In this document: positions 2,360 to 64,000 of the stretch, in pieces
How positions within the stretch are numbered: position 1 is the stretch's first letter
Layout: every line of letters starts with the position of its first letter
Origin: Parcubacteria group bacterium
GTDB lineage: Bacteria > Patescibacteriota > Minisyncoccia > Moranbacterales > UBA9337
Assembly (NCBI GenBank): GCA_041662245.1
Contig: JBAZSW010000002.1
Coordinates: forward strand, 89,017 to 153,016
Direction: 5' to 3'
DNA: 64,000 nt
Position numbers and translations under genes: made by a program
The notes under the pieces: model-generated
Databases searched by the model: none
Told to the model about the DNA's origin: nothing
What the model saw: only the letters and a program-made list of their open reading frames with translations

Positions 2360-3526
2360 ATGAAAGAATTATTGTATCGTTATAATCCATGGTGGGAGGG
2401 GGAGATTGACTTAAAAAATTCCATTTCACGCCCGATTTTTTTTCAAGAAATGCTTGATAATCTGAGAAAACGGCAGATAGTTATCTTGACCGGCCTTCGA
2501 AGAGTTGGTAAAACGACCTTGATGAAACAACTGATACGACACTTGCTTGATGAAAAAAATATCAAAGCCGAGCATATTTTTTATATCAGTCTAGATGATT
2601 ATTTATTAAAGGATAAAAGCATTCTCGAAATAGTTGAGGAATATCGAAAAATTCATCGACTTGCTCATGACAAAAAAGTATTTTTATTTCTGGACGAAAT
2701 AACTTATCAAAAAGACTTTGAAATTCAATTAAAAAATATCTATGATCAGGAAAATGCCAAGGTTTATGTTTCTTCATCCAGTGCTTCTGTTTTAAAAAGC
2801 AAGAAGTCTTTTTTGACCGGTCGAAACTCTCTAATTGAGATTATGCCTCTGAATTTTAAGGAGTATTTGCAATTCAAAAAAATAAAAATTAAAAAAGCTG
2901 ATAAGCATTTGCTGGAAGGCATTTTTGAAGAGTTTATGCAAACTGGCGGAATGCCGGAATATGTCTTGACTGGAGATGTGCAATATTTAAAAGAGTTGGT
3001 CGATGATATCATTCAAAAAGACATTGCGGCACATTATGGCATTAGAGATGTGCAAATTTTAAAAGATTATTTCCTTTTGTTGATGGAAAGATCGGGCAAA
3101 GTTTTGAGTATTAATAAAATTGCCAAAATATTGGATATTTCTCCGGATTCATCAAGACGATATTTAGATATGTTTGTCGATTCATATTTGATATTTTTGG
3201 TATCAAGACATGGCAAAGTAAATGAGCGTTTGCTATCTGCTAAAAAAATATATGCCGCCGATTTGGGAATAAAAACATATTTTTCTGGATTTAGGGATAA
3301 GGGCAGTTTGTTTGAAAATTATGTCTACTTACAAATTAAAAAAAATAATCCTGCTTATATTTATCAAGATGGCAATGAAATTGATTTTATGACTGACAAA
3401 AAAATCCTAATTGAAGTAAAATATAATGCCCAGATGAATGAAAAACAAAATAAACTTTTTGAGAAAATTGTTGCCAAGAAAAAGATTTTGATTAAAAATA
3501 TTTTCGATTTGGATAAATTAAAATAA
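2360..3526 (+). CDS. AAA+ ATPase with C-terminal DUF4143 / PD-(D/E)xK nuclease-like domain (COG1373-type)
   Basis: Walker A motif ILTGLRRVGKTTL; Walker B motif FLFLDEI; C-terminal motif NEIDFMTDKKILIEVKYN (D...E.K). Confidence 0.75.
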   Translation: MKELLYRYNPWWEGEIDLKNSISRPIFFQEMLDNLRKRQIVILTGLRRVGKTTLMKQLIRHLLDEKNIKAEHIFYISLDDYLLKDKSILEIVEEYRKIHRLAHDKKVFLFLDEITYQKDFEIQLKNIYDQENAKVYVSSSSASVLKSKKSFLTGRNSLIEIMPLNFKEYLQFKKIKIKKADKHLLEGIFEEFMQTGGMPEYVLTGDVQYLKELVDDIIQKDIAAHYGIRDVQILKDYFLLLMERSGKVLSINKIAKILDISPDSSRRYLDMFVDSYLIFLVSRHGKVNERLLSAKKIYAADLGIKTYFSGFRDKGSLFENYVYLQIKKNNPAYIYQDGNEIDFMTDKKILIEVKYNAQMNEKQNKLFEKIVAKKKILIKNIFDLDKLK

Positions 3527-3600
3527 ATTCCGACTTAGGGATCGGACCCTCCACAAGTTCATAATCTTTTTATGGTATAATGGAGAGAAGAGAGGAGGAT

Positions 3601-3905
3601 TTAAGATAAATTTTTAATTTTTATATTTTTAATTTTTAAATAAATTTTAAAACAAAATTTTTAAACCAATTAAAGTATGATCTTGATTGGAATTAAAACA
3701 TTAAGATTTGAATCAAAATTTTAAATTTTAAATTTAAAGTTTAAAATGAATATAAAAATATTAAATGATTAAAACAGATACGAAATATAATAAGAAAAAG
3801 ATTAAAATTAAAATTTATTCATTTAAAATTGATTTCAAATTTCAAATTTAGCCTTTAAAATTAGAGCTATATTTACAAAATTACAAAAATTACAAAATTA
3901 AAAAT
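3601..3905. repeat. Repeat family A, copy 2
   Basis: About 97% identical to 1956-2257. Confidence 0.85.
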
Positions 3906-12675: not shown

Positions 12676-12750
12676 GTCATTTCGACCGAATAAATATTTG
12701 TACTCAAATATTTAGAAGTGGAGACCTGCCTGCCGGCAGACAGGAATCTT
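12676..12750. repeat. Intergenic repeat family B (long form with GC palindrome CCTGCCTGCCGGCAGACAGG)
   Basis: The unit gtcatttcgaccgaataaatatttgtactcaaatatttagaagtggagacctgcctgccggcagacaggaatctt recurs at 16074-16148. Short forms lacking the GC hairpin are at 14343-14400 and 41224-41280. A partial copy is at 40931-40990. The unit contains a perfect AT hairpin AAATATTTG-TACT-CAAATATTT. Confidence 0.8.
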
Positions 12751-13128: not shown

Positions 13129-14262
13129 ATGTCATTTTATCCGAGAATAATTAAAGAAAGTATTGAAAAAAGCCTTTTTAAGGGTAAGGTTATTATTATT
13201 TATGGTGCTAGGCAAGTCGGAAAAACTACATTATCCAAGGAAATCCTGAAAAAATATGAAGGCAAAAGCACTTTTTTTAACTGTGAACTTTTGTCAGTCA
13301 AACAAAGTTTGGAAGTCCAAGAAGCCGCATCCTTAAAAGATTTTTTGGGAGATAATAGGCTGATCGTTTTGGATGAAGCGCAAAATGTTGCAAATGTAGG
13401 TCGGATTCTAAAAATAATGGTTGACACTTATCCCGAAATTCAAATAATCGCGACAGGATCTTCAAGCTTTGATCTGGCCAATAAAACCAGTGAACCTTTG
13501 ACCGGTAGAGCCATTCGTTTCACGCTCAGCCCATTGTCATTGGAAGAAATAAAAAACAAGACTAACGCAGTAGAATTGAATGCCCAGTTGGAAAACATTA
13601 TGCGATTTGGGACATATCCGGAGGTCTTTTTTTCGGCGGAAGAAAGTGCCAAGGATAAGCTGGATGAAATTGTTTCCAATTATCTGTATAAAGATGTCTT
13701 GATGCTGGATGGCATAAAAAAACCGGCAATTATCATAAAACTTCTCCAATTGTTGGCACTACAACTTGGCAATGAAGTTTCCTACAATGAATTGGCAACT
13801 TCGCTAGGGATAAATAGGCTCACCGTGGAAAAATATATCGATTTATTGGAAAAATGTTTTGTTATTTTTACCTTGAGAGCTTTGAGTCGCAATATGAGAA
13901 AAGAAATTTCGAAATCCGTGAAAATATATTTTTATGATTTGGGCATTAGGAACAGCTTGATACAGAATTATAATCTGTTGGAGATGCGCAATGATATCGG
14001 TGCTCTGTGGGAAAATTTGATGATTGTGGAAAAAATAAAGAAGAATAGTTATCATAAGATCTATGCTAATCTTTATTTCTGGCGCACTTATGACCAGAAA
14101 GAAATAGATTTAATAGAGGAACGGGACGGAAAATTTTTTGCCTATGAATTTAAGTGGAAAAAAGATAAGACTAAAGAGCCAAGGGACTTTTTGAGCAATT
14201 ATGCTAATTCTGAATTTGAAGTTGTTAACAGAGAAAATTATGGGAAGTTTTTGTTTGAGTGA
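13129..14262 (+). CDS. AAA+ ATPase with C-terminal PD-(D/E)xK-like domain (paralog 2)
   Basis: Walker A motif IIYGARQVGKTTL; Walker B motif VLDEAQ; C-terminal motif KEIDLIEERDGKFFAYEFKWKKD. Confidence 0.75.
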   Translation: MSFYPRIIKESIEKSLFKGKVIIIYGARQVGKTTLSKEILKKYEGKSTFFNCELLSVKQSLEVQEAASLKDFLGDNRLIVLDEAQNVANVGRILKIMVDTYPEIQIIATGSSSFDLANKTSEPLTGRAIRFTLSPLSLEEIKNKTNAVELNAQLENIMRFGTYPEVFFSAEESAKDKLDEIVSNYLYKDVLMLDGIKKPAIIIKLLQLLALQLGNEVSYNELATSLGINRLTVEKYIDLLEKCFVIFTLRALSRNMRKEISKSVKIYFYDLGIRNSLIQNYNLLEMRNDIGALWENLMIVEKIKKNSYHKIYANLYFWRTYDQKEIDLIEERDGKFFAYEFKWKKDKTKEPRDFLSNYANSEFEVVNRENYGKFLFE

Positions 14263-14823: not shown

Positions 14824-15999
14824 ATGTATATAAAAAGACAAGCTGAAGATACAATTTTGAAACTATTGAAGAAATATCCCGCAGTCGCTCTTGTTGGTCC
14901 GCGACAATCTGGTAAATCAACTATTGCCAAAAATATATTGAAAAATTATCCTTATTACTCGCTAGAGGACTTGGATGAGCGTGAATTTGCTACTTCTGAT
15001 CCACGTGGCTTTCTGGAGCGTTTTAAAAATGGCGGAATAATAGATGAAATTCAAAAAGTGCCAGAATTAATCTCGTATCTGCAATCATTTTTGGATAATA
15101 AAAAAAATAAAAGTCCTATTATTTTGACTGGATCAGCCCAATTGACATTGTTGTCCAATATCAGTCAAACTTTGTCTGGCAGGGTGGCTATAATTGAATT
15201 GTTGCCTTTGGCTTATGTTGAAATAAAAAAAATGTCAGTGGCTCCGAAGTCATTAGAAAAATTATTTCATACAGGCTTATATCCAAAATTATATAAAGAA
15301 AAGATTAATCCTAATGATTGGTATTACGATTATGTTAAAACATACCTGGAAAGAGATGTCAGAGATATTTTGAAAGTGCATAATCTTGGAACATTTCAAA
15401 AATTTCTTAAAATGTGCGCTTCACGTGCCGGACAAATTTTGAATTTTTCATCACTGGCCAATGATTGTGGCATATCTCATTCTACTGCTGAGTCGTGGTT
15501 CAATATTCTTGAAGCGACATATATTGTAATTCGCATCCAACCGCATCATCAAAATTTTTCCAAGAGATTAATCAAATCGCCTAAACTGTATTTTTATGAT
15601 ACCGGTCTTTTGTGTTTTCTTTTGGGGATCAGTTCGGCTGATGACTTAAAAACTCATTCTTTTCGTGGAGCGATAATGGAGAATTGGGTGGCGAATGAAA
15701 TTGTAAAATCGAAATGTAACGCTCACAAACCAAATGGCATATATTTTTGGCGTGACAATAAGGGTATTGAGATTGATTTTGTAATGGAGCAAGGAACGAA
15801 ATTATATCCAATTGAAGTCAAATCAGGCAAAACTATAAATACGGATTATTTCAAAAATATTTTATACTGGTCGAAATTGGCTGGAAACAAGGCCAAGAAT
15901 GGAGCAGTGGTTTATGCGGGAAATGAAAATCAAACCAGAACAGATTTTGAGATTTATGGATGGAAATCTATAGATAACTTAATTGAGAGGATGATTTAG
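14824..15999 (+). CDS. AAA+ ATPase with C-terminal PD-(D/E)xK-like domain (paralog 3)
   Basis: Walker A motif ALVGPRQSGKSTI; Walker B motif IIDEIQ; C-terminal motif GIEIDFVMEQGTKLYPIEVKSGKT. Confidence 0.75.
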   Translation: MYIKRQAEDTILKLLKKYPAVALVGPRQSGKSTIAKNILKNYPYYSLEDLDEREFATSDPRGFLERFKNGGIIDEIQKVPELISYLQSFLDNKKNKSPIILTGSAQLTLLSNISQTLSGRVAIIELLPLAYVEIKKMSVAPKSLEKLFHTGLYPKLYKEKINPNDWYYDYVKTYLERDVRDILKVHNLGTFQKFLKMCASRAGQILNFSSLANDCGISHSTAESWFNILEATYIVIRIQPHHQNFSKRLIKSPKLYFYDTGLLCFLLGISSADDLKTHSFRGAIMENWVANEIVKSKCNAHKPNGIYFWRDNKGIEIDFVMEQGTKLYPIEVKSGKTINTDYFKNILYWSKLAGNKAKNGAVVYAGNENQTRTDFEIYGWKSIDNLIERMI

Positions 16000-16073: not shown

Positions 16074-16148
16074 GTCATTTCGACCGAATAAATATTTGTA
16101 CTCAAATATTTAGAAGTGGAGACCTGCCTGCCGGCAGACAGGAATCTC
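16074..16148. repeat. Repeat family B (long form)
   Basis: Identical to 12676-12750. Confidence 0.8.
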
Positions 16149-39572: not shown

Positions 39573-39601
39573 TTGACATTTTTTATTAAAAACAGTACAA
39601 T
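39573..39601 (+). promoter_or_regulatory. Promoter TTGACA (39573-39578), 17-bp spacer, TACAAT (39596-39601)
   Basis: Canonical hexamers and spacing. The track ORF begins at the TTG of the -35 hexamer, so the true start is more likely the ATG at 39636. Confidence 0.55.
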
Positions 39602-39635
39602 AAGGGCAGAAATTAATATTAAATTCATACATTAT

Positions 39636-40913
39636 ATGAGTGAAATTTATAAAAGAAGGTTAGTAGACAATATTAAAAAATGGTTAAATAGGCCAGAAAT
39701 CATCGTTATTACGGGTTCTCGTCAGATAGGCAAAACATTTTTAACCAGAAAAATATTGCCGACTATAACAAAAAAGCCGATAAAATATTTTAATTTTGAG
39801 GATTTGGAGCTTCGTTCGTTGTTTCAAGAAAACCCAAAAGGTTTTATGGAAAGCATTAAAGACGAGGAAAATATTTATGTTTTTGATGAATTTCAGAAAG
39901 TTCCTAATCTGACTAGCTTTTTAAAAGTACTTTATGATCAAGACAAAGAAAAAATTCCAAAAATATTTTTAACTGGTTCTTCATCGCTTGAAATTCAAGA
40001 AAAAATTTCGCAAAGCCTAGTGGGTCAATGTGTTGTTTTTGATTTTTTTTCACTGTCTTTTTCTGAGAGATATTTTTTAGAGAAAAATAATCTTTTGGGA
40101 GAAATTTTATCACTTGAGAGCAGTTTAGATATAAAAAAACTACAACAGGGAGTTTTTTTTGAAAAAGATGATTTGGCGAGAAAATTTGATGAATATATGT
40201 TACGAGGTGGATACCCAGAACTGGGAGAGCTGGAGGGCGAGCAAATTTGGCAAAAATTAAAATCAATTATTGAGTTGATTCTAGAAAAAGATATGCGAGG
40301 ACTGGTGAAAGATGAACATCTTTTTTCTTCCAAAAAACTTTTAGAAATTTTGGCTTTTCGCATTGGCAATATTATTTCCTTTGAAAATCTGGCTGCGGAA
40401 ATGCAACTTAATATCAAAACAGTGCGCAACTTGATAGCCGTTTTTAAAGGATTATTTTTTATCGAATTTATCTATCCCAAAGCAAGTTTTGCGCATGAAT
40501 ATAAAAAAGCGCCAAAGGTGTATTTCAATGATTTGGGTATGCGAAATGAATTGATAAAAATGCATAAACTTCCAGTTGATCGATCGCAACTCGGAGCGAT
40601 GGTGGAGAACTTTGTTTTTTGCCAGCTTAAACGATATAGTGCTTATAAAAAAGATTTTAAGATAAACTATTGGCAAGATTATAATAAAAATGAAGTGGAC
40701 TTTGTTTTGGATGTTGAAGGTCGGATTATTTCAATAGAAGTTAAATATCGCAAAGGTCAGAAAGATAGATTAACTGTCGGTGTTGCGAACTTTATTAAAA
40801 AATATAATTCACAAACCCATATTACAATTACCTATGATTATTTTGGAACTTCTAAAATTGGCAATTGTACAGTTTACTTCATTCCTGCTTATATGTTTGG
40901 ATTGATAATATAA
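39636..40913 (+). CDS. AAA+ ATPase with C-terminal PD-(D/E)xK-like domain (paralog 4)
   Basis: Walker A motif VITGSRQIGKTFL; Walker B motif VFDEFQ; C-terminal motif NEVDFVLDVEGRIISIEVKYRKG. Confidence 0.7.
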   Translation: MSEIYKRRLVDNIKKWLNRPEIIVITGSRQIGKTFLTRKILPTITKKPIKYFNFEDLELRSLFQENPKGFMESIKDEENIYVFDEFQKVPNLTSFLKVLYDQDKEKIPKIFLTGSSSLEIQEKISQSLVGQCVVFDFFSLSFSERYFLEKNNLLGEILSLESSLDIKKLQQGVFFEKDDLARKFDEYMLRGGYPELGELEGEQIWQKLKSIIELILEKDMRGLVKDEHLFSSKKLLEILAFRIGNIISFENLAAEMQLNIKTVRNLIAVFKGLFFIEFIYPKASFAHEYKKAPKVYFNDLGMRNELIKMHKLPVDRSQLGAMVENFVFCQLKRYSAYKKDFKINYWQDYNKNEVDFVLDVEGRIISIEVKYRKGQKDRLTVGVANFIKKYNSQTHITITYDYFGTSKIGNCTVYFIPAYMFGLII

Positions 40914-41002
40914 GAATCGTAATTTCTAAATAAATATTTGTACTCAAATATTTAGAAGTGGAGACCTGCCTGCCGACAGGAATCTTAGATGAATGATAAA
41001 TC

Positions 41003-41865: not shown

Positions 41866-41913
41866 TTCGAATTCCCGCCTGCAAACGCTGTAGCACTGCG
41901 GGCAGGTTAAATG
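41866..41913. repeat. About 45-bp element; an inverted copy lies at 48505-48548
   Basis: gaattcccgcctgcaaacgctgtagcactgcgggcaggttaaatg. Its reverse complement matches 48505-48548 at about 43 of 45 positions. Confidence 0.7.
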
Positions 41914-48504: not shown

Positions 48505-48548
48505 ATTTAACCTGCCCGCAGTTGCTACAGTGTTGCAGGCGGGAATTC
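48505..48548. repeat. Inverted copy of the 41866-41913 element
   Basis: gatttaacctgcccgcagttgctacagtgttgcaggcgggaattc. Confidence 0.7.
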
Positions 48549-51156: not shown

Positions 51157-51226
51157 ATAGAATAAATCGGCATCTCTACATGATGTTTGATAAATATGTT
51201 GTAGAGACGCAATTTATTGCGTCTAA
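51157..51226. repeat. REP pair in inverted orientation flanking the RAYT 5' end
   Basis: cgatagaataaatcggcatctctaca (reverse) and tgtagagacgcaatttattgcgtctaaaa (forward). Confidence 0.7.
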
Positions 51227-51233
51227 AATAAAA

Positions 51234-51899
51234 ATGACAGACAAGTTCAAAAATAAATATAAAATAGATTCTACTCGTTTAAAAAATTATGATTATTCTC
51301 AAAATGGAATGTATTTTGTTACCATTTGCACTAAAGATCATAAGCATTTTTTTGGTGAGGTGATTGATGGAAAAATGATTTTAAATGATGTCGGTAAAAT
51401 TGTAGATAAATTATGGCAAGAAATTCCTAGATATTTCCCATTTGTAAAATTAGATATTTATCAGATTATGTCTAACCATATTCATGGGAATTTGGAAATA
51501 ATTCGAGACGATAATGTAGAGACGCGATTTATCGCGTCTAAAACTAACCATATTCATGGGAATTTGGAAATAATTCGAGACGATAATGTAGAGACGCGAT
51601 TTATCACGTCTCAAACAAACGGAGGTGTTGCTGGTGGAAGTAATCCGATGCTAAATCCAGATTCATTATCAAGTATTATTCGTTGGTATAAAGGTAGATG
51701 TTCATTTGAAATCAGAAAAAATATGAAGGGTGTAACTTTTGCTTGGCAACCTCGATTTTATGATCATATAATTCGCGATAATGAATCTTTGAATAAAATT
51801 CGTGAATATATAATTGAAAATCCTGAAGTGTGGGAAAAAGAAGGAGATAAGATAGAGAATAATTTTAATGTAGAGACACGATTTGTCGTGTCTAATTAA
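51234..51899 (+). CDS. REP-associated tyrosine transposase (RAYT, IS200-like Y1 HuH transposase) with a 72-bp in-frame REP-containing tandem duplication at 51474-51617
   Basis: HuH motif SNHIHGNLEI and C-terminal RAYT signature WQPRFYDHIIRDNESLNKIREYIIENPEVW. The gene is flanked and internally punctuated by GTAGAGACG...CGTCTCTAC hairpins. Confidence 0.8.
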   Translation: MTDKFKNKYKIDSTRLKNYDYSQNGMYFVTICTKDHKHFFGEVIDGKMILNDVGKIVDKLWQEIPRYFPFVKLDIYQIMSNHIHGNLEIIRDDNVETRFIASKTNHIHGNLEIIRDDNVETRFITSQTNGGVAGGSNPMLNPDSLSSIIRWYKGRCSFEIRKNMKGVTFAWQPRFYDHIIRDNESLNKIREYIIENPEVWEKEGDKIENNFNVETRFVVSN

Positions 51900-56852: not shown

Positions 56853-57113
56853 ATGAAAAATAATTTAAATTCATACAGAGATTTAATAGTATGGCAAAAA
56901 GCTATGGAGCTAGTGACAGAAATTTATAAATTAACTGACAAATTTCCAAAAGAAGAAATTTATGGAATTGTATCTCAAATGAGAAGATGTGCAATATCGA
57001 TACCTTCAAATATTGCAGAGGGAAGAAGACGGGATGGAAAAAAAGATTTTAGAAGGTTTTTAATTATCGCTTATGGATCGGGAGCAGAATTAGAAACCCA
57101 AATTGAAATTTAA
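56853..57113 (+). CDS. Four-helix-bundle protein (TIGR02436 / '23S rRNA intervening sequence protein' family), C-terminally short
   Basis: YRDLIVWQKAMELVTEIYKLTDKFPKEEIYGIVSQMRRCAISIPSNIAEG. Confidence 0.65.
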   Translation: MKNNLNSYRDLIVWQKAMELVTEIYKLTDKFPKEEIYGIVSQMRRCAISIPSNIAEGRRRDGKKDFRRFLIIAYGSGAELETQIEI

Positions 57114-58844: not shown

Positions 58845-58950
58845 AATACTCAATAAACAATGTTCATTAAATAATCAATAAATTAATATTCAATTGAATG
58901 TTGGATATTAAATATTGAATGAATATTGAATATTGTTTATTGAGTATTAA
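58845..58950. repeat. Palindromic element, family C (near-perfect ~100-bp palindrome)
   Basis: aatactcaataaacaatgttcatt...attcaattgaat...attgtttattgagtatt. The termini AATACTCAATAAACAAT / ATTGTTTATTGAGTATT are exact reverse complements. Confidence 0.8.
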
Positions 58951-59026
58951 GTAAAAGACTTTGTTAATGAATGCAGTAAAATAAAACTCAGAAAATTAAA
59001 ATATGAAATAGTTAATAATAAATATT

Positions 59027-59323
59027 ATGGAAATAAAAGAATTATTAGAAAAATCAAAAAGCATTTGGGGTGAAGATAAATTAAATTTATCTCAAATAAT
59101 TGTGAGAACGGGTAAGGTTTTTGGCGACATCTGTCGTTGGGAAAGAAATTCCCAAAAAGATAAAGAAACTCACAATGACTATGAGTTAAAAAAAGAATTA
59201 GGTAACATGATTTTTTGTAATATTCGATGGTGTGATGATTTAGGTTATGATCCACAGGAATGCATCGAGCTAGCAATTAAAGCTCAAGAAAAATTTGTCC
59301 AAGAAAACAATAAAAATAGTTAA
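59027..59323 (+). CDS. Small MazG-like nucleotide pyrophosphohydrolase (putative)
   Basis: 98 aa, all-helical. The motif ELKKELGNMIFCNIRWCDDLGYD resembles the MazG/NTP-PPase EExGD-type motif. Weak call. Confidence 0.35.
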   Translation: MEIKELLEKSKSIWGEDKLNLSQIIVRTGKVFGDICRWERNSQKDKETHNDYELKKELGNMIFCNIRWCDDLGYDPQECIELAIKAQEKFVQENNKNS

Positions 59324-59445
59324 AAATTCAAAGTGCAAAATTCAAAGTTGCAATTAAAAATTAAAAGTTTTTATTTTTAGAATAAATTTTGAACTTTGGA
59401 CTGTAATTTTTAACTTTGCATTTTTAACTTTTAACTTGAATTATT

Positions 59446-60348
59446 ATGAATAATGATTTAATCAAAAACTATGCTTCGGGAGGCGACACTTGTGCCGGTT
59501 GTGGAATTCCTGTGATTGTGAGGAATATTTTAGATGTTGCCACTGATCCGATAGTGATTATCAATGCCACGGGATGTCTGGAGGTCACTTCCACTATTTA
59601 TCCTTATACTGCATGGAAAGTCCCTTATATTCATAACGCTTTTGAAAATGCGGCGGCGACTGCTGCTGGAATAGAAACTGCTTATCAGGCGATGAAAAAA
59701 AGAGGACTGATGGATAAAAAAATAAAGTTTGTTGTTTTCGGCGGAGATGGAGGAACTTTTGATATTGGGTTGCAATCACTTTCGGGGATGCTTGAGCGAG
59801 GACATGATGTGCTTTATGTGGCTTATGATAATGAAGGCTATATGAATACAGGAGGGCAACGTTCAGGAGCTACTCCAATTGGAGCTAGTATGGAAACTAC
59901 TCCTTCGGGAAAAAAATCTTATGGCAATAAAAATTCTCGTAAAAATATGATGCAAATTGTGGCAGGGCACGAAGTGGGTTATCTGGCTCAAGCTAATGTG
60001 GCTTATGTAGAGGATTTGCGAAAAAAAGCTAAGAAAGCTTTGGAAACAGAAGGAGCATCTTTTCTTTTGGTTTTTCAGCCTTGTACCAATGTTTGGAAAT
60101 TTCCCACTTCTGATTATGTGAAAGTGGCGAAATTAGCCACGGAAACTAATTATTGGCCACTTTATGAAATTGAAAATGGGGAACATAAATTAAATTTAAA
60201 AAATGACAATCCTAAAAAAATAGAAGAATATCTAAAAACTCAAAAAAGATTTAAACATCTATTTGCACCAGGGAATGAAGAAGTTTTAAAGAGCATTCAG
60301 GAAAAGGTAAATGGAGAGTGGGAAAGATTGTTAAAAAAAGTTATTTAA
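59446..60348 (+). CDS. porB: Pyruvate:ferredoxin oxidoreductase beta subunit (TPP-binding)
   Basis: CAGCGIPVIVRNIL..., VVFGGDGGTFDIGLQSLSGMLERGHDVLYVAYDNEGYMNTGGQRS. Confidence 0.85.
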   Translation: MNNDLIKNYASGGDTCAGCGIPVIVRNILDVATDPIVIINATGCLEVTSTIYPYTAWKVPYIHNAFENAAATAAGIETAYQAMKKRGLMDKKIKFVVFGGDGGTFDIGLQSLSGMLERGHDVLYVAYDNEGYMNTGGQRSGATPIGASMETTPSGKKSYGNKNSRKNMMQIVAGHEVGYLAQANVAYVEDLRKKAKKALETEGASFLLVFQPCTNVWKFPTSDYVKVAKLATETNYWPLYEIENGEHKLNLKNDNPKKIEEYLKTQKRFKHLFAPGNEEVLKSIQEKVNGEWERLLKKVI

Positions 60349-60424
60349 TATCTAATATCCAATAATCAATATTCATTCAATATTTAATAATCCAATATTC
60401 ATTATTTAATTAAATTTTATTTTT

Positions 60425-60778
60425 ATGAATAATTTTGATCTTGAAGAAAGAACTGCAAAATTTGCAGAAGAAATCATAGAATTGTGTAAAGAGCTAGAAA
60501 TAAATTCATTAAATAGAAGAATAATTGATCAATTAATAGGTTCAAGCGGTTCAATTGGAGCTAACTATTGTGAAGCTTGCGAATCTGAAAGCAAAAAAGA
60601 TTTTAGACACAAAATGGGTATTGCAAAAAAAGAAATAAAAGAAACAAAGCATTGGCTGAGATTATTAGTAAAAGTTCATAATGACAAAAAAGATAAATGC
60701 AGAGTTTTATGGAAGGAAGCTCATGAATTATTGTTGATTTTTTCTAAATCTATAAAGACTAGCAAAAATGGAAAATAG
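60425..60778 (+). CDS. Four-helix-bundle protein (TIGR02436 family), full length
   Basis: Same family as 56853: ...IIDQLIGSSGSIGANYCEACESESKKDFRHKMGIAKKEIKETKHWLRLL. Confidence 0.65.
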   Translation: MNNFDLEERTAKFAEEIIELCKELEINSLNRRIIDQLIGSSGSIGANYCEACESESKKDFRHKMGIAKKEIKETKHWLRLLVKVHNDKKDKCRVLWKEAHELLLIFSKSIKTSKNGK

Positions 60779-60847
60779 TGGTTGGTATCTAATTGAATAT
60801 TAATTTATTGGTTATTGAATGTATATTGTTTATTGGATATTGAACAT

Positions 60848-60868
60848 TAAAAACGAGCCACCTGCTCG
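60848..60868 (-). terminator. Rho-independent terminator for the minus-strand tRNA cluster
   Basis: The minus strand reads CGAGC-AGGTG-GCTCG followed by TTTTT. Confidence 0.5.
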
Positions 60869-61009
60869 CCTCGCTGAAGCTACTGCGAAGCGGGTCGGAA
60901 ACGAACCGACGACCTACACGTTACCTGCCCGAAATGCTTTGAGCCGTCTATCGGGATTGAACCGATGACCTACGCGTTACGAGTGCGTCGCTCCGCCTGC
61001 CTACGCCTG
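60856..61009 (-). other. Two degenerate tRNA 3'-half-like segments downstream of tRNA-Thr (anticodon-loop-like CTCGTAA, T arms ATCGG-TTCAATC-CCGAT and GTCGG-TTCGTTT-CCGAC). Neither has a matching 5' acceptor strand
   Basis: The minus-strand segments align to the 3' half of the tRNA-Thr (GAGCGACGCACTCGTAACGCGTAGGTCATCGGTTCAATCCCGATAGACGGC and ...GTAACGTGTAGGTCGTCGGTTCGTTTCCGACCCGCTTCG). No sequence complementary to AGACGGC or CCGCTTC is found 5' of them. Confidence 0.5.
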
Positions 61010-61082
61010 AGCCTACAATCGGACTTGAACCGATAACCTACGGTTTACGATACCGTTGCTCTACCAATTGAGCTATGTAGGC
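61010..61082 (-). tRNA. tRNA-Thr (anticodon CGU), no encoded CCA
   Basis: The minus strand reads GCCTACATAGCTCAATTGGTAGAGCAACGGTATCGTAAACCGTAGGTTATCGGTTCAAGTCCGATTGTAGGCT. Acceptor stem is GCCTACA / TGTAGGC, D arm GCTC..GAGC, anticodon stem ACGGT / ACCGT with loop ATCGTAA, T arm ATCGG-TTCAAGT-CCGAT. Confidence 0.8.
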
Positions 61083-61084
61083 TT

Positions 61085-61125
61085 AGGCGATGGCGGGCAG
61101 GTCTACCAACTGAGCTAAGGTGGCA
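61085..61125 (-). other. tRNA 5'-fragment-like sequence (GCCACCTTAGCTCAGTTGGTAGAC) truncated after the D arm and followed by CCTGCCCGCC
   Basis: Acceptor-like GCCACCT plus D arm GCTCAGTTGGTAGA, then no anticodon arm or T arm. Confidence 0.4.
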
Positions 61126-61239
61126 CTAATACAAATATCATTGTAATACAATTAGCAATAAATTTCAAATAAACTCTTTGACATTTATTTTTTTGTGGTA
61201 TAATAAAATTGATAAATTAAAACTTTAAAAAATAAAAAA

Positions 61240-61659
61240 ATGGAAAAAAAATATGTTGTTATAATTGCTGTTATTTTAGTGGCAACTTTGGGTGTGATTA
61301 TTTTTGTTACTCAATCTCGTTTTGGGAAAAAAGATATTGTTACTAGTGAGCTTAATGCAAACAAAATAGTTAAAGAAGCTAAACTTATTCTTCCGGAAAA
61401 AGAGGAATGTAGTTATGCAAATGGAGCAGAGGCTGTTAGCCTTGCGTTGGAAAGAGGCGATATTACTATTTGTGATTGTATAAAAAATGATGATAAGATT
61501 AAGGAATCTTGTAACAATGTTGTAAATGAAGCGGATATCTATAAGAGAGCTACTCGAGAAAAAAATATTGATATTTGTCAAGAGATAGAAAGCGAAGATG
61601 GACAAAAAAATTGCAAAGAAAATGTTTTGGCCAAGATAGAATATTTGAATAATAAATAA
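61240..61659 (+). CDS. Hypothetical membrane-anchored Cys-containing protein (139 aa)
   Basis: N-terminal TM helix VVIIAVILVATLGVIIFV. No known domain. Confidence 0.45.
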   Translation: MEKKYVVIIAVILVATLGVIIFVTQSRFGKKDIVTSELNANKIVKEAKLILPEKEECSYANGAEAVSLALERGDITICDCIKNDDKIKESCNNVVNEADIYKRATREKNIDICQEIESEDGQKNCKENVLAKIEYLNNK

Positions 61660-61682
61660 AAATAAATATTAAAAACAAAAAA

Positions 61683-62882
61683 ATGAATAAGAAGTACTTA
61701 GTTATAATCGGTGTCATTTTTCTGATAACAATTGGTGTTTTTATTTTTAATTTAGAAAAAAGAAAAAATGTTTCGCCAATAGATAAAATTGATGGAGTCG
61801 CTGTAGCAGAAAATAGCGCAACTTTAATTTCTCAAAAAAATAATAATTTTAAGATAAGGCTTAACTTTAAAGGCGAGGAAAATGTGGCTAAATCTATCAC
61901 GAGATATTATGTTTCTTTATACCCAGCCGATGATAACGGAGATGCTCTTGGACTTTCTCCTGTTGACGTGGCTAAATATGATGATGAGATATTTTTGGGA
62001 AATGGAAATAATAGTGCAAAAAGAGAAATTCTTTATATCGCTCCCAGTTTTTTAAAGGGAAAGTATGCTATAACCGTTAATTATGTTAATGAAGTGGGAA
62101 TAAGCAAAAAAAATATAAAATTAGGAGGTTATGATTTAAATGGTAGTAACAGGAATTTTGTGGAAGTTTTTTCAGGAACATGCAAATTTAATATAGTTGG
62201 AGAGACTGACAATAAGAAATATACCCTTTCTCAGGGTGTGGATGTCAAAAATAGTGAAGATCTAAGGGTTACCTGTTCAGTGATGAGTCACTTTGCTGAA
62301 GATGTTTCAGTTATGCCTAGTTTTGCTAATCTCAGAAGAAAGAATCTTTATCCACGAGAGGAAGTAGCACAAGAAGATAAAAACTTAGAATTTATTACTC
62401 TTAAGCCCAATGAATTGAAGGATGTGTCTTTCTCTGTCCCCAAAGCTTTAGCTCCTCAAGCTTATGATGCTGTTTTATTTTTTTTAGATGAACAAAGACA
62501 TATTATTTCCACTAAAGCATTTTTGCATTATGTTTTGGCGGGAGAAAGTGCCAATATTGAAAGATTGACTTTGGATAAAAATGATTATAAGTTAGGAGAT
62601 CATGCCAATGTAAATTTGTCTTATTTTGGTTCAGCAGATGGCTTTGCCGACTCTAGGTTAGGTGGAACAAAAAACACAAAGTTAATTTTTGAATTAGACT
62701 TGCGAGATAATAATGATGTAAGTTGTCTTTCCATGACGAAGTTTTTCGAAGTTAATCCTTCAGATAGTAATGTGAGTAATTTTGTTTTGGATGTAGAAAA
62801 GGAATGCAAAAATCCTTTTGTAAGAGCTGTTATTAGGGGAGAAAATGGAAATATATTAGAGGAAGAAACATTTTTACGTTAA
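61683..62882 (+). CDS. Hypothetical membrane-anchored protein (399 aa)
   Basis: N-terminal TM helix LVIIGVIFLITIGVFIF and an apparently beta-rich ectodomain. Confidence 0.45.
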   Translation: MNKKYLVIIGVIFLITIGVFIFNLEKRKNVSPIDKIDGVAVAENSATLISQKNNNFKIRLNFKGEENVAKSITRYYVSLYPADDNGDALGLSPVDVAKYDDEIFLGNGNNSAKREILYIAPSFLKGKYAITVNYVNEVGISKKNIKLGGYDLNGSNRNFVEVFSGTCKFNIVGETDNKKYTLSQGVDVKNSEDLRVTCSVMSHFAEDVSVMPSFANLRRKNLYPREEVAQEDKNLEFITLKPNELKDVSFSVPKALAPQAYDAVLFFLDEQRHIISTKAFLHYVLAGESANIERLTLDKNDYKLGDHANVNLSYFGSADGFADSRLGGTKNTKLIFELDLRDNNDVSCLSMTKFFEVNPSDSNVSNFVLDVEKECKNPFVRAVIRGENGNILEEETFLR

Positions 62883-62913
62883 AAAATATTTATTTATACT
62901 TAAAAATAAAATT

Positions 62914-64000
62914 ATGAGTATCAGTTTGCAATTATTCAAAAAAAGAAATGTAACTAAAAAAACAGAGGTTTTGATTTCAGTTTCATTTTTTCTGTTATTA
63001 TCTGGTGGATTTTTCTTGGGATGGAATGTTCCTGAAATTAAAGCTGGATGTAGTGGTCAATGTGTTGGAGATTTTGGTAAGATTGGTAATAATGTTGATA
63101 GTGGTAATAGTACAGCTACTAAGGAGTGTTGTGTGTGTAGTACATCTTCTTGTAAAAACGAACATTGCACATGTAAAGCTACTTCTTGCGCCGCTTCTAC
63201 TTGCCAAGGTAGTACTTGTCAGTATACCAAGAGCGATTGTAGCACAGGCACTGAATCTGGAACACAATGCTGTCCTACTTGCAATTATATAAGTTCTTAC
63301 AGCTCTTGGGATGCCTGTCATTATGACACAGGTTTAAAAACTTATGTTCAACGAGGGACTCATCCAAATTTTAGTCATGATTGTGGTAGTGGCTGTCCCG
63401 CAGATGCTCAAAGTGTTAGACTTTGTGGAGTATGCAATGGTGCTGTTCCTGCTTCCAGTGTTGCTCCTTTTGCTTTAACTCCTTGTCTGGGAGGTGGTGT
63501 GGCTGCTATGAACTTAGTAAGTCCCAACTGGAAATGGAATTGTTTGGGCGGCGGCGGGGGTAGTGCTGCTATAGGTTGTAGCTCTTCTTACATCCCTGTT
63601 CCAACTGTTAGTTTAACTGTTAATCCTGCATCAGTTAATTTAAATGGTGGGACGTCAACGATATCCCCCAAAAATGTTAATTTAACTTGGAGTATAACGA
63701 ATTCCGCTACTGCTTGCCCAAATGGATGCACTTGCTCTGCGTCCAATGCTTGGGCTGGAGTTAAGACTTCTTCAGGTACAGAAACAGTTACGATTTCCTC
63801 CGGAGCTGATCCTACTTATACTTTGACTTGCAGTAATACATTTAGTGGAGTAAGTGCCCCTGTTTCAAGAACAGTCGTTTCTTCTTGTACCCCGTTAACT
63901 TATTATGATACTTGTAATGTTACTTGTGACAGTGGCACGCAAGCTTGTCATCATATTAATTCTAATTGTGTAGTTTCTGCTTGTGCAGATAAAACCTGCA
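62914..64000 (+). CDS. Cys-rich secreted/anchored protein, 3' end outside the window (not in the ORF track)
   Basis: Frame 1 is open from the ATG at 62914 to the window end, checked codon by codon. N-terminal TM/signal segment VLISVSFFLLLSGGFFLGW, then repeated C-x-C / CxxC-rich segments (GCSGQCVG...CCVCSTSSCKNEHCTCKATSCAASTCQGSTCQY...). Confidence 0.6.
   Translation, partial: MSISLQLFKKRNVTKKTEVLISVSFFLLLSGGFFLGWNVPEIKAGCSGQCVGDFGKIGNNVDSGNSTATKECCVCSTSSCKNEHCTCKATSCAASTCQGSTCQYTKSDCSTGTESGTQCCPTCNYISSYSSWDACHYDTGLKTYVQRGTHPNFSHDCGSGCPADAQSVRLCGVCNGAVPASSVAPFALTPCLGGGVAAMNLVSPNWKWNCLGGGGGSAAIGCSSSYIPVPTVSLTVNPASVNLNGGTSTISPKNVNLTWSITNSATACPNGCTCSASNAWAGVKTSSGTETVTISSGADPTYTLTCSNTFSGVSAPVSRTVVSSCTPLTYYDTCNVTCDSGTQACHHINSNCVVSACADKTC

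Follow-up and report, generated by a model that had tools for sequence, protein, structure and literature searches.

Nested tRNA-Thr(CGU) genes beside the por operon of a Parcubacteria genome, probably built by serial insertion of tRNA-bearing mini-cassettes

How does a bacterial locus come to hold one intact tRNA gene with pieces of other tRNA genes on either side of it? This question is raised by a cluster of about 270 nt, next to the porCDAB operon, on the minus strand of a 64,000-nucleotide stretch of DNA (hereafter the window) from contig JBAZSW010000002.1 of a Parcubacteria group bacterium. The original prediction described an intact tRNA-Thr(CGU) with two tRNA-derived segments directly 3' and a 5' acceptor plus D-arm fragment directly 5' of it, and all of these parts were recovered (Table 1; the 5' fragment measures 23 nt). 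ARAGORN and Rfam agree on the intact gene, a tRNA-Thr(CGT), and it is the only tRNA that they detect in the window, with no second or third intact tRNA called in the cluster. The comparison with orthologous loci leads us to propose that nested tRNA-Thr(CGU) genes were probably built here by serial, self-complementing insertion of mini-cassettes that carry a tRNA gene and resemble repetitive extragenic palindromic (REP) sequences and miniature inverted-repeat transposable elements (MITEs), and that only the innermost gene is alive.

Read on the minus strand from 61124 to 60855, the cluster consists of positions 1-23 of an outer gene, a 110-nt cassette with the intact gene (tRNA A) in it, positions 23-76 of a second gene (piece B), a 16-nt spacer, positions 35-65 of the outer gene (piece C), a 30-nt hairpin and positions 66-73 of the outer gene. 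Pieces B and C had been taken for tandem copies lacking a matching 5' acceptor strand. However, the GCCACCT of the 5' fragment is the exact complement of AGGTGGC at 60863-60857, 30 nt past the T arm of piece C. In the minimum free energy (MFE) fold the sequence forms one nested structure that encloses the cloverleaf of tRNA A (-116.4 kcal/mol, z = -5.4, none of 200 shuffles as good). By this pairing and this fold, the 5' fragment belongs to one gene with piece C and the far 3' end, and the blocks are nested and not tandem. Resident positions 24-34 and positions 1-22 of B are missing from the window. The whole cluster forms a GC island, with 49-55% GC in 200-nt windows versus about 24-34% just outside.

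The broken genes, here called shells, retain recognizable arms. Piece B has an anticodon arm (ACGCA-CTCGTAA-CGCGT) and a T arm (ATCGG-TTCAATC-CCGAT) and reaches 19.7 bits (E = 0.21) with the Rfam tRNA model, which is below threshold, while piece C has the T arm GTCGG-TTCGTTT-CCGAC, whose T loop TTCGTTT is typical of the lineage. The spacer after piece B, AAAGCATTTCGGGCAG, includes CGGGCAG(G), the complement of CCTGCCCG (61101-61094), which directly follows the 5' fragment and pairs with CGGGCAGG. Apart from the promoter-like site listed in Table 1, the only other match of this kind lies about 75 nt further upstream (61229-61200), and the promoter-site scan found none between the outer block and the inner tRNA. 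A TATTACAAT-type box also precedes the tRNA locus in four relatives (L019, L034, L040 and L025; L numbers denote the loci that were compared).

Table 1. Components of the nested tRNA-Thr(CGU) cluster, in minus-strand order, and the two dispersed hairpins with the same termini. Positions are those of the window.
Feature	Position (strand)	Sequence	Description and comparison
Promoter-like site	61140..61168 (-)	TTGAAA-17 nt-TACAAT	Immediately precedes the outermost tRNA block; 10/12 consensus matches
Outer shell block 1	61102..61124 (-)	GCCACCTTAGCTCAGTTGGTAGA	Ancestral tRNA-Thr(CGU) positions 1-23, acceptor 5' strand plus D stem/loop; 0 mismatches to the intact tRNA of L020, L025 and L041
Left flank of inner cassette	61083..61101 (-)	CCTGCCCGCCATCGCCTAA	19 nt, GC-rich, terminus CCTGCCCGC; identical in L039, 2 mismatches in L041
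Inner tRNA A, tRNA-Thr(CGU)	61010..61082 (-)		Intact; called by ARAGORN and Rfam (61009/61010-61082, 70.8 bits)
Right flank of inner cassette	60993..61009 (-)	CAGGCGTAGGCAGGCGG	17 nt, terminus GCAGGCGG; identical in L039, 1 mismatch in L041
Middle shell, piece B	60941..60992 (-)	AGCGACGCACTCGTAACGCGTAGGTCATCGGTTCAATCCCGATAGACGGCTC	Positions 23-76 of a second tRNA-Thr(CGU), first ~22 nt missing; differs at 1 position from the nested tRNA of L034/L036/L019, which is complete and called by ARAGORN; present also in L040
Right flank of older B cassette	60925..60940 (-)	AAAGCATTTCGGGCAG	16 nt; 16/16 identical to L034/L036/L019; decayed copy in L043
Outer shell block 2, piece C	60894..60924 (-)	GTAACGTGTAGGTCGTCGGTTCGTTTCCGAC	Ancestral positions 35-65, mid-anticodon to T arm; identity 31/31 to intact L020, 30/31 to L025 and L034
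Hairpin insert at 65/66 (T stem/acceptor 3' strand)	60864..60893 (-)	CCGCTTCGCAGTAGCTTCAGCGAGGCGAGC	30 nt, GC-rich; 30/30 identical at the same 65/66 site in L034/L036; absent from the intact L020 and L025 genes
Outer shell block 3	60855..60863 (-)	AGGTGGCTC	Positions 66-73 (AGGTGGC + U) plus C, then a T run; identical to L020, L025, L034 and L041
'Empty' hairpin	41873..41906 (-)	CCTGCCCGC-AGTGCTACAGCGTTT-GCAGGCGGG	AT-rich intergenic DNA
'Empty' hairpin	48511..48543 (+)	CCTGCCCGC-AGTTGCTACAGTGTT-GCAGGCGGG	AT-rich intergenic DNA; TTAA/AATTC flanks as for the 41873..41906 copy

Orthologous loci were recovered through neighbouring genes (synteny) and by genome- and metagenome-wide pattern scans, for which the T arm of the outer gene served as the query. 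Synteny through the 399-aa protein that flanks the cluster, whose relatives extend to Candidatus Moranbacteria, led to relatives without a tRNA at this place (L003-L008); porB synteny was more productive. Moranbacteria GW2011 genomes carry one intact gene directly after porB on the opposite strand (GCCACCTTAGCTCAGTTGGTAGAGCAACGCACTCGTAACGCGTAGGTCGTCGGTTCGTTTCCGACAGGTGGCTC, a tRNA-Thr(CGT) with GCCACCT...AGGTGGC). The closest relative found, Moraniibacteriota BF4_177 (L020; 84.7% nucleotide identity over porB and the four-helix-bundle gene), likewise has an intact resident tRNA-Thr gene at the locus, to which the three outer blocks of the window show no mismatch, and homology between the two loci sets in again precisely with the outer 3' acceptor strand.

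The inserted parts have their counterparts in other lineages. In three loci from the Rifle aquifer (L034, L036 and L019) the outer gene is broken at three points: a 16-nt palindrome sits in the D loop, the hairpin at 65/66, and a cassette of ~110 nt in the anticodon loop at 34/35 or 35/36, which consists of CCCGCCCGCCATGAATAT, a complete tRNA B (GCCGTCT...AGACGGC) and AAAGCATTTCGGGCAG. Piece B, spacer and 30-nt hairpin differ by 0-1 nt between the window and L034, and L019 has a 3' deletion in its shell. The younger cassette of the window recurs in L039, where left flank, tRNA A and right flank are 110/110 identical and inserted at the same D-arm junction, although the porB DNA is just 78.9% identical and the shell is a different one, heavily mutated and decayed. 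Diverged versions of the cassette occupy the same D-arm junction in L041/L042 and L048; in L048 a hairpin replaces the anticodon of the shell. Across five lineages with different shells the junction GTAGA/CCTG...GGCGG/RGC is identical. L043, whose arrangement was found in more than 20 contigs from many samples, has several nesting levels and a chimeric inner gene that begins as an A-type tRNA at its 5' end and ends as another tRNA, and L040 presents another nested series on a third acceptor type. The acceptor stems of the shells vary by lineage and are complementary within each locus (GCCACCT/AGGTGGC in L041 and L048, GCCGTCT/AGACGGC in L043); both types are also known as intact genes, which argues for independent insertions. 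The cluster of the window is thus a three-part mosaic of a native gene (L020-like), an older B cassette with the hairpin (L034-like) and a younger A cassette (L039-like).

At least seven other lineages carry varied inserts at the orthologous loci (different hairpins, cassettes, a MITE-like insert or 23S-rRNA-IVP/four-helix-bundle genes), which bears out the suggestion that the flank of the por operon is an insertion hotspot.

Some arrangements at these loci deserve a description of their own. In Moranbacteria GW2011 (minus strand; L012 250-700, L025, L031 and L033) a MITE-like insert of ~300 nt, bounded by inverted repeats of ~40 nt (GTCTCTGCGAGTAATTTCTGTACTCGGAATTTGCGTGGCAGTC), separates the promoter-like box from the intact tRNA-Thr, and the tRNA is followed by a tRNA remnant with a hairpin in its anticodon loop. 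In Parcubacteria SO_2017_GW1_67 (L026) an intact tRNA-Thr(CGT) is preceded, at about 3400-3470 on the plus strand, by a 5' tRNA fragment, GCCGCTTTAGCTCAGTT, with a perfect palindrome of 30 nt after it, TCGGCCATAGGCCGATCGGCCTATGGCCGA, which represents a further family of palindromes at a D-loop site. Beside porB, L043-L047 hold several tRNA-Thr(CGU) pieces, nested and chimeric (about 3409-3700, minus strand). No tRNA is callable by ARAGORN at the porB-adjacent locus of the L043 type, and tRNA-Thr(CGU) may have been lost or relocated in this lineage.

We suggest the following course of events. The resident tRNA-Thr(CGU) would first have been split in its anticodon loop (34/35 or 35/36) by the ~110-nt cassette with tRNA B, as in the L034-type lineage. 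A second cassette of the same design, made up of a left end CCTGCCCGCCAT with spacer, the complete tRNA A, and a spacer with the right end GGCAGGCGG, would then have entered at the 3' edge of the D loop/D stem (21-23/24). Resident positions 24-34 and B positions 1-22 were probably lost by deletion between identical 16-nt D-arm repeats, TAGCTCAGTTGGTAGA, present in both genes. Transcription of all ~280 nt probably starts at the one promoter-like site that directly precedes the outer block. From this transcript tRNA A, the predicted sole functional product, would be freed by RNase P and 3' processing, while the shell pieces, a structured leader and trailer, would go to waste. Each insertion would break and replace the resident tRNA in one step and would accordingly be near neutral and hard to lose; it was presumably tolerated because the cassette supplies a working copy of the gene that it breaks. 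The cassette ends are members of a dispersed group of GC-rich imperfect palindromes, REP/MITE-like, that land repeatedly in tRNA loops, and the cassettes would be mobile or horizontally exchanged units, moved either by mobilisation in trans or by homologous recombination with the conserved tRNA shell as arms. What the comparison of loci itself contributes to this proposal is the nesting, the colinearity with intact orthologues, the recurrent junction, an identical cassette at ~21% porB divergence, the kinship of ends and hairpins, and the selection on the inner gene.

The last of these points was addressed with a covariation alignment of four cassette-bearing loci, a number that gives low power. 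The three compensatory pairs found, two in the acceptor and one in the anticodon stem (relative to the inner tRNAs of L041 and L048), all fall in stems of the inner tRNA, whereas in the two helices that the cassette flanks build every change either breaks a pair or produces a wobble, with no covariation. tRNA A has what is expected of a functional tRNA, namely a full cloverleaf that scores 70.8 bits versus a threshold of 29 and two-sided changes at three stem pairs. This pattern points to structural selection on the inner tRNA only. The shells in turn range from complete (L041, L034) over truncated (window, L019) to heavily mutated or anticodon-less (L039, L048, L043), a gradient that looks like pseudogene remnants of different ages, unlike conserved exons.

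The ends of the cassette link it to a population of dispersed palindromes. Its termini, CCTGCCCGC and GCAGGCGG(G), recur as two 'empty' hairpins in the window (Table 1) and in a further one between por genes in L039; the 9-mer CCTGCCCGC is found at 41906 (-), at 48511 (+) and in the left flank of tRNA A. These are short imperfect palindromes with conserved termini in multiple dispersed copies, as is characteristic of REPs and REP doublets forming hairpins (REPINs). The terminal CCTGCC/GGCAGG are inverted repeats, and a GA duplication of 2 bp may be present in the window, where L039, L041 and L048 have GA/GG. Related GC-rich palindromes interrupt the D loop, anticodon loop, T loop or position 65/66 of shells in L026, L034, L040, L041, L048 and L025.

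One of these palindromes, the perfect 20-mer CCTGCCTGCCGGCAGGCAGG, occurs exactly in 35 IMG/VR stretches (viral loci L049-L083; GC 0.38-0.68). It lies inside a tRNA-Met at the variable-loop position in L073 and L050 and in a tRNA D arm (GGTA/palindrome/GAGC) in L080, where its site adjoins the position of the cassette site of the window; some of the viral copies are flanked by direct repeats. Near-perfect copies of 20 nt (CCTGCCTGCCGGCAGACAGG) are present in the window at 12725-12744, 16123-16142 and 40965-40986. The segments that hold them are intergenic, duplicated and at least about 85 nt long, and AAA_14/DUF4143 genes lie beside them. The viral contigs gave no match to tRNA A, to tRNA B or to either cassette end, and a blastn search against phage records returned generic tRNA-Thr similarity only, over 26% of the query.

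The sole transposase-like gene found in the window is an ORF of 239 aa at 51180-51899 (+) resembling REP-associated tyrosine transposases (RAYTs). It has HUH (NHIH) and tyrosine (REYIIENP) motifs and an internal tandem duplication, and matches NCBIfam NF047646 with E = 1.2e-13, below the cutoff; its best PDB match is TnpA-REP 4ER8 (E = 0.068). About 10 copies of a REP with the palindrome GTAG-AGACGCGATTTATCGCGTCT are scattered in the window (22485, 22506, 48413, 48441, 51204, 51519, 51591, 51873, 51919 and 53208). The RAYT-like gene is of a kind that could plausibly mobilise the cassette, but the REPs around it are of a different family; it shows that such enzymology is present in the genome and does not thereby identify the mobiliser. 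An integron attC-type or IS200/IS605-type target was also considered and rejected, as a TTAC on the complementary strand of the anticodon loop fits the 34/35 site but the D-arm site has no TTAC.

REPINs, Rickettsia palindromic elements and yeast mitochondrial GC clusters are small palindromic invaders of AT-rich genomes. The cassette family is like REP/RAYT-type palindromes in being dispersed, GC-rich and imperfectly palindromic with conserved termini in an AT-rich genome, in that it can sit in structural RNA genes, and in the presence of a RAYT-like gene in the window. It differs in that one form holds a complete tRNA gene between its arms, in that the insertions are concentrated in the loops of tRNA-Thr(CGU), and in that the REPs flanking the RAYT-like gene are of another sequence family. 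To our knowledge, no REP/RAYT system, Rickettsia palindromic element or mitochondrial GC cluster carries a whole tRNA into the gene of its own isoacceptor. The feature is best described as joining traits of small mobile palindromic elements with those of tRNA-gene scars.

Several observations weigh against an origin by cassette insertion. No mobilising enzyme is tied to the cassette, and the RAYT-like ORF is flanked and invaded at both ends by the different, GTAG-AGACGCGATTTATCGCGTCT family of REPs. A 'free' cassette outside a tRNA shell was not found, nor was there a hit to it in the viral contigs or phage records, the genome and metagenome scans having been keyed on the outer T arm. The outer blocks are free of mutations in the window, L034 and L041, and joined in silico the blocks of the window give a valid tRNA-Thr(CGT), which is how a functional interrupted gene would look. 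The order of events, insertion of A followed by deletion between the repeats, is a reconstruction from the present sequences, and the independent cassette-bearing lineages sampled number about five only.

Among the alternatives, the one that fares best, although we consider it unlikely, involves no mobile cassette: duplication, gene conversion and deletion would have acted locally on tandem tRNA-Thr(CGU) paralogues, and the nesting would be a side effect of illegitimate and homologous recombination between nearly identical tRNA sequences at a single unstable locus. Chimeras clearly arise in this way, as in L043 and in the window itself, where outer positions 1-23 are fused towards B 23-76 in keeping with the D-arm-repeat deletion, and all copies are of the same isoacceptor at one locus. 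What such recombination leaves unexplained are the GC-rich non-tRNA flanks with their conserved termini and dispersed hairpin copies, the identical junction in five lineages with different shells, and the complete identity of a 110-nt cassette at 79% porB DNA identity.

We regard it as quite improbable that the outer gene is a functional interrupted or split tRNA, whose blocks, once the inner tRNA is released, are put together again by some excision-ligation activity new to bacteria or assemble non-covalently, and as a shade less probable still that a nested precursor gives two tRNAs, the inner one through RNase P and 3' processing and the outer one reconstituted by ligation or by non-covalent assembly held by the GC segments. 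Split, tri-split, multi-intron and permuted tRNAs are known from archaea such as Nanoarchaeum equitans, Caldivirga maquilingensis and Thermoproteales. The cluster resembles them in its colinear pieces broken near ~25 and ~35-37, in the GC-rich complementary segments by the breakpoints of its strongly nested fold, which are reminiscent of Nanoarchaeum split-tRNA leaders, and in the valid tRNA that ARAGORN recognizes when the mutation-free blocks are joined. The host, however, is a bacterium, as its RpoA with the bacterial C-terminal domain and its Obg show, and it belongs to the Candidate Phyla Radiation (CPR)/Patescibacteria, the 399-aa flanking protein being assigned by NCBI to a Parcubacteria group bacterium, so that archaeal splicing machinery is not to be assumed. 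No bulge-helix-bulge motif was found: by hand inspection the anticodon-loop junction has an internal loop of 4x3 and then a helix of 8 bp, and the D-arm junction directly abuts a 6-bp helix. Moreover, the pieces derive from different ancestral genes, since the block with positions 24-34 that would complete the outer tRNA comes from gene B and not from the outer gene, for which L020 predicts A29/U41. The shells of L039, L043, L048 and L019 are decayed, chimeric or anticodon-less, the flanking helices lack covariation, and the product would be redundant with the intact tRNA A inside. The split or permuted tRNA that the original prediction had offered as its second option is thus not supported.

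Patescibacteria do tolerate introns in tRNA genes: group I introns of 184-894 bp with a catalytic core interrupt the anticodon loop, including 35/36, and cause tRNA finders to miss the genes (PMC13011429). The phylum and the interruption of the anticodon loop, including 35/36, are shared with our locus. In contrast, the inserts described here measure 16, 30 and ~110 nt, one of them contains a cloverleaf tRNA, and they are also found at D-arm, T-loop and 65/66 sites. An Rfam search of 60700-61300 at E <= 10 gave no Intron_gpI, ribozyme or other family beyond the tRNA matches, and ARAGORN in intron mode (-i0,400, relaxed score) found no further credible tRNA in the window and L034 regions, only a spurious low-score tRNA-Leu at -ps90.

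The original prediction had favoured classic integration scars at a tRNA attachment site. Under this reading islands or prophages would have been integrated in turn at the 3' end of the tRNA-Thr and lost again, with duplication of the integrase att site. tRNA fragments left by integrating elements (attL/attR duplications, including the Thermococcaceae cases) have been reviewed (PMC9897764), and the likeness is real: partial dead copies lie beside an intact tRNA, the disrupted gene is restored by the incoming DNA, the target is used recurrently, and the locus varies among relatives. Repeated insertion stands as a description of the locus, but we give att duplication only a slim chance. In a classic att duplication the 3' copies stand in tandem, have a single 5' boundary in common and border a large element. 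The pieces of the window, by contrast, are nested, one of them is a 5' fragment, the breakpoints (23/24 and 34-36) lie inside the tRNA body in the D arm and anticodon loop next to specific non-tRNA flanks, and the intervening DNA is 16-110 nt long. One unit of ~110 nt brings a whole tRNA, while known elements bring a 3' segment. The acceptor strands AGACGGC and AGGTGGC do not pair with the GCCTACA of the intact tRNA, as attR remnants should. No integrase or island was found, the former in Pfam and NCBIfam scans of 36 window ORFs (the three giant ORFs left out) or in the gene tables of the related loci.

A chimeric join of tRNA-Thr reads from several strains is hardly credible. The tRNA arms are repeated, and some short-read contigs of the same run do end within the cluster. 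However, an independent assembly of that run reproduces the arrangement, with two Logan contigs that match 58899-61062 and 61046-64000 at 100% identity and overlap within tRNA A, which excludes mis-assembly of the metagenome-assembled genome (MAG) as its cause, and comparable nesting occurs in unrelated samples and assemblers (JGI, ENA, NCBI, Logan).

If insertion of tRNA-bearing cassettes is the correct explanation, these CPR bacteria harbour a minimal selfish unit of DNA, about 110 bp long and consisting of palindromic ends and a complete tRNA gene, which inserts into the resident copy of its own tRNA gene and kills and replaces it in one step. Integrating islands that restore the 3' end of a tRNA are a conceptually close precedent; literature searches for nested tRNA genes, for a tRNA-bearing element of ~110 bp and for the 20-nt palindrome found no description. 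It would also explain odd tRNA fragments or a missed tRNA-Thr(CGU) in MAGs of Moranbacteria and Parcubacteria, such as those of the L043 type with no callable gene. The loci form a natural series for the study of tRNA gene turnover and decay in reduced genomes, and the GC-rich palindromes a family with a marked preference for tRNA loops, of which one exact 20-mer lies inside tRNA genes of unrelated viral contigs. Should the precursor instead give two tRNAs, tRNA splicing or split tRNAs would exist in Bacteria without group I introns.

Beyond the cluster, the window encodes bacterial ribosomal proteins and giant ORFs of 2,510-4,133 aa in addition to RpoA, Obg and porCDAB. Four paralogous AAA_14 plus DUF4143 ATPase genes (2360-3526, 13129-14262, 14824-15999 and 39573-40913, all on the plus strand) alternate with the three giant ORFs (2,510, 3,186 and 4,133 aa), which have internal repeats in common, and GC-rich hairpin repeats are clustered around the ATPase genes. 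Two 23S-rRNA-IVP/four-helix-bundle (Avd-like) genes, at 56853-57113 (+) and 60425-60778 (+), lie in and after the por operon. Their positions vary among relatives, with one between porD and porA in L039 and none after porB in Moranbacteria GW2011, which suggests that these genes are themselves mobile. Finally, a 98-aa ORF between porA and porB (59027-59323, plus strand) has no Pfam or NCBIfam match. Genes of similar size are called at this place in L001, L039, L041 and L048, and the product may be a small por-associated protein that is as yet uncharacterised.

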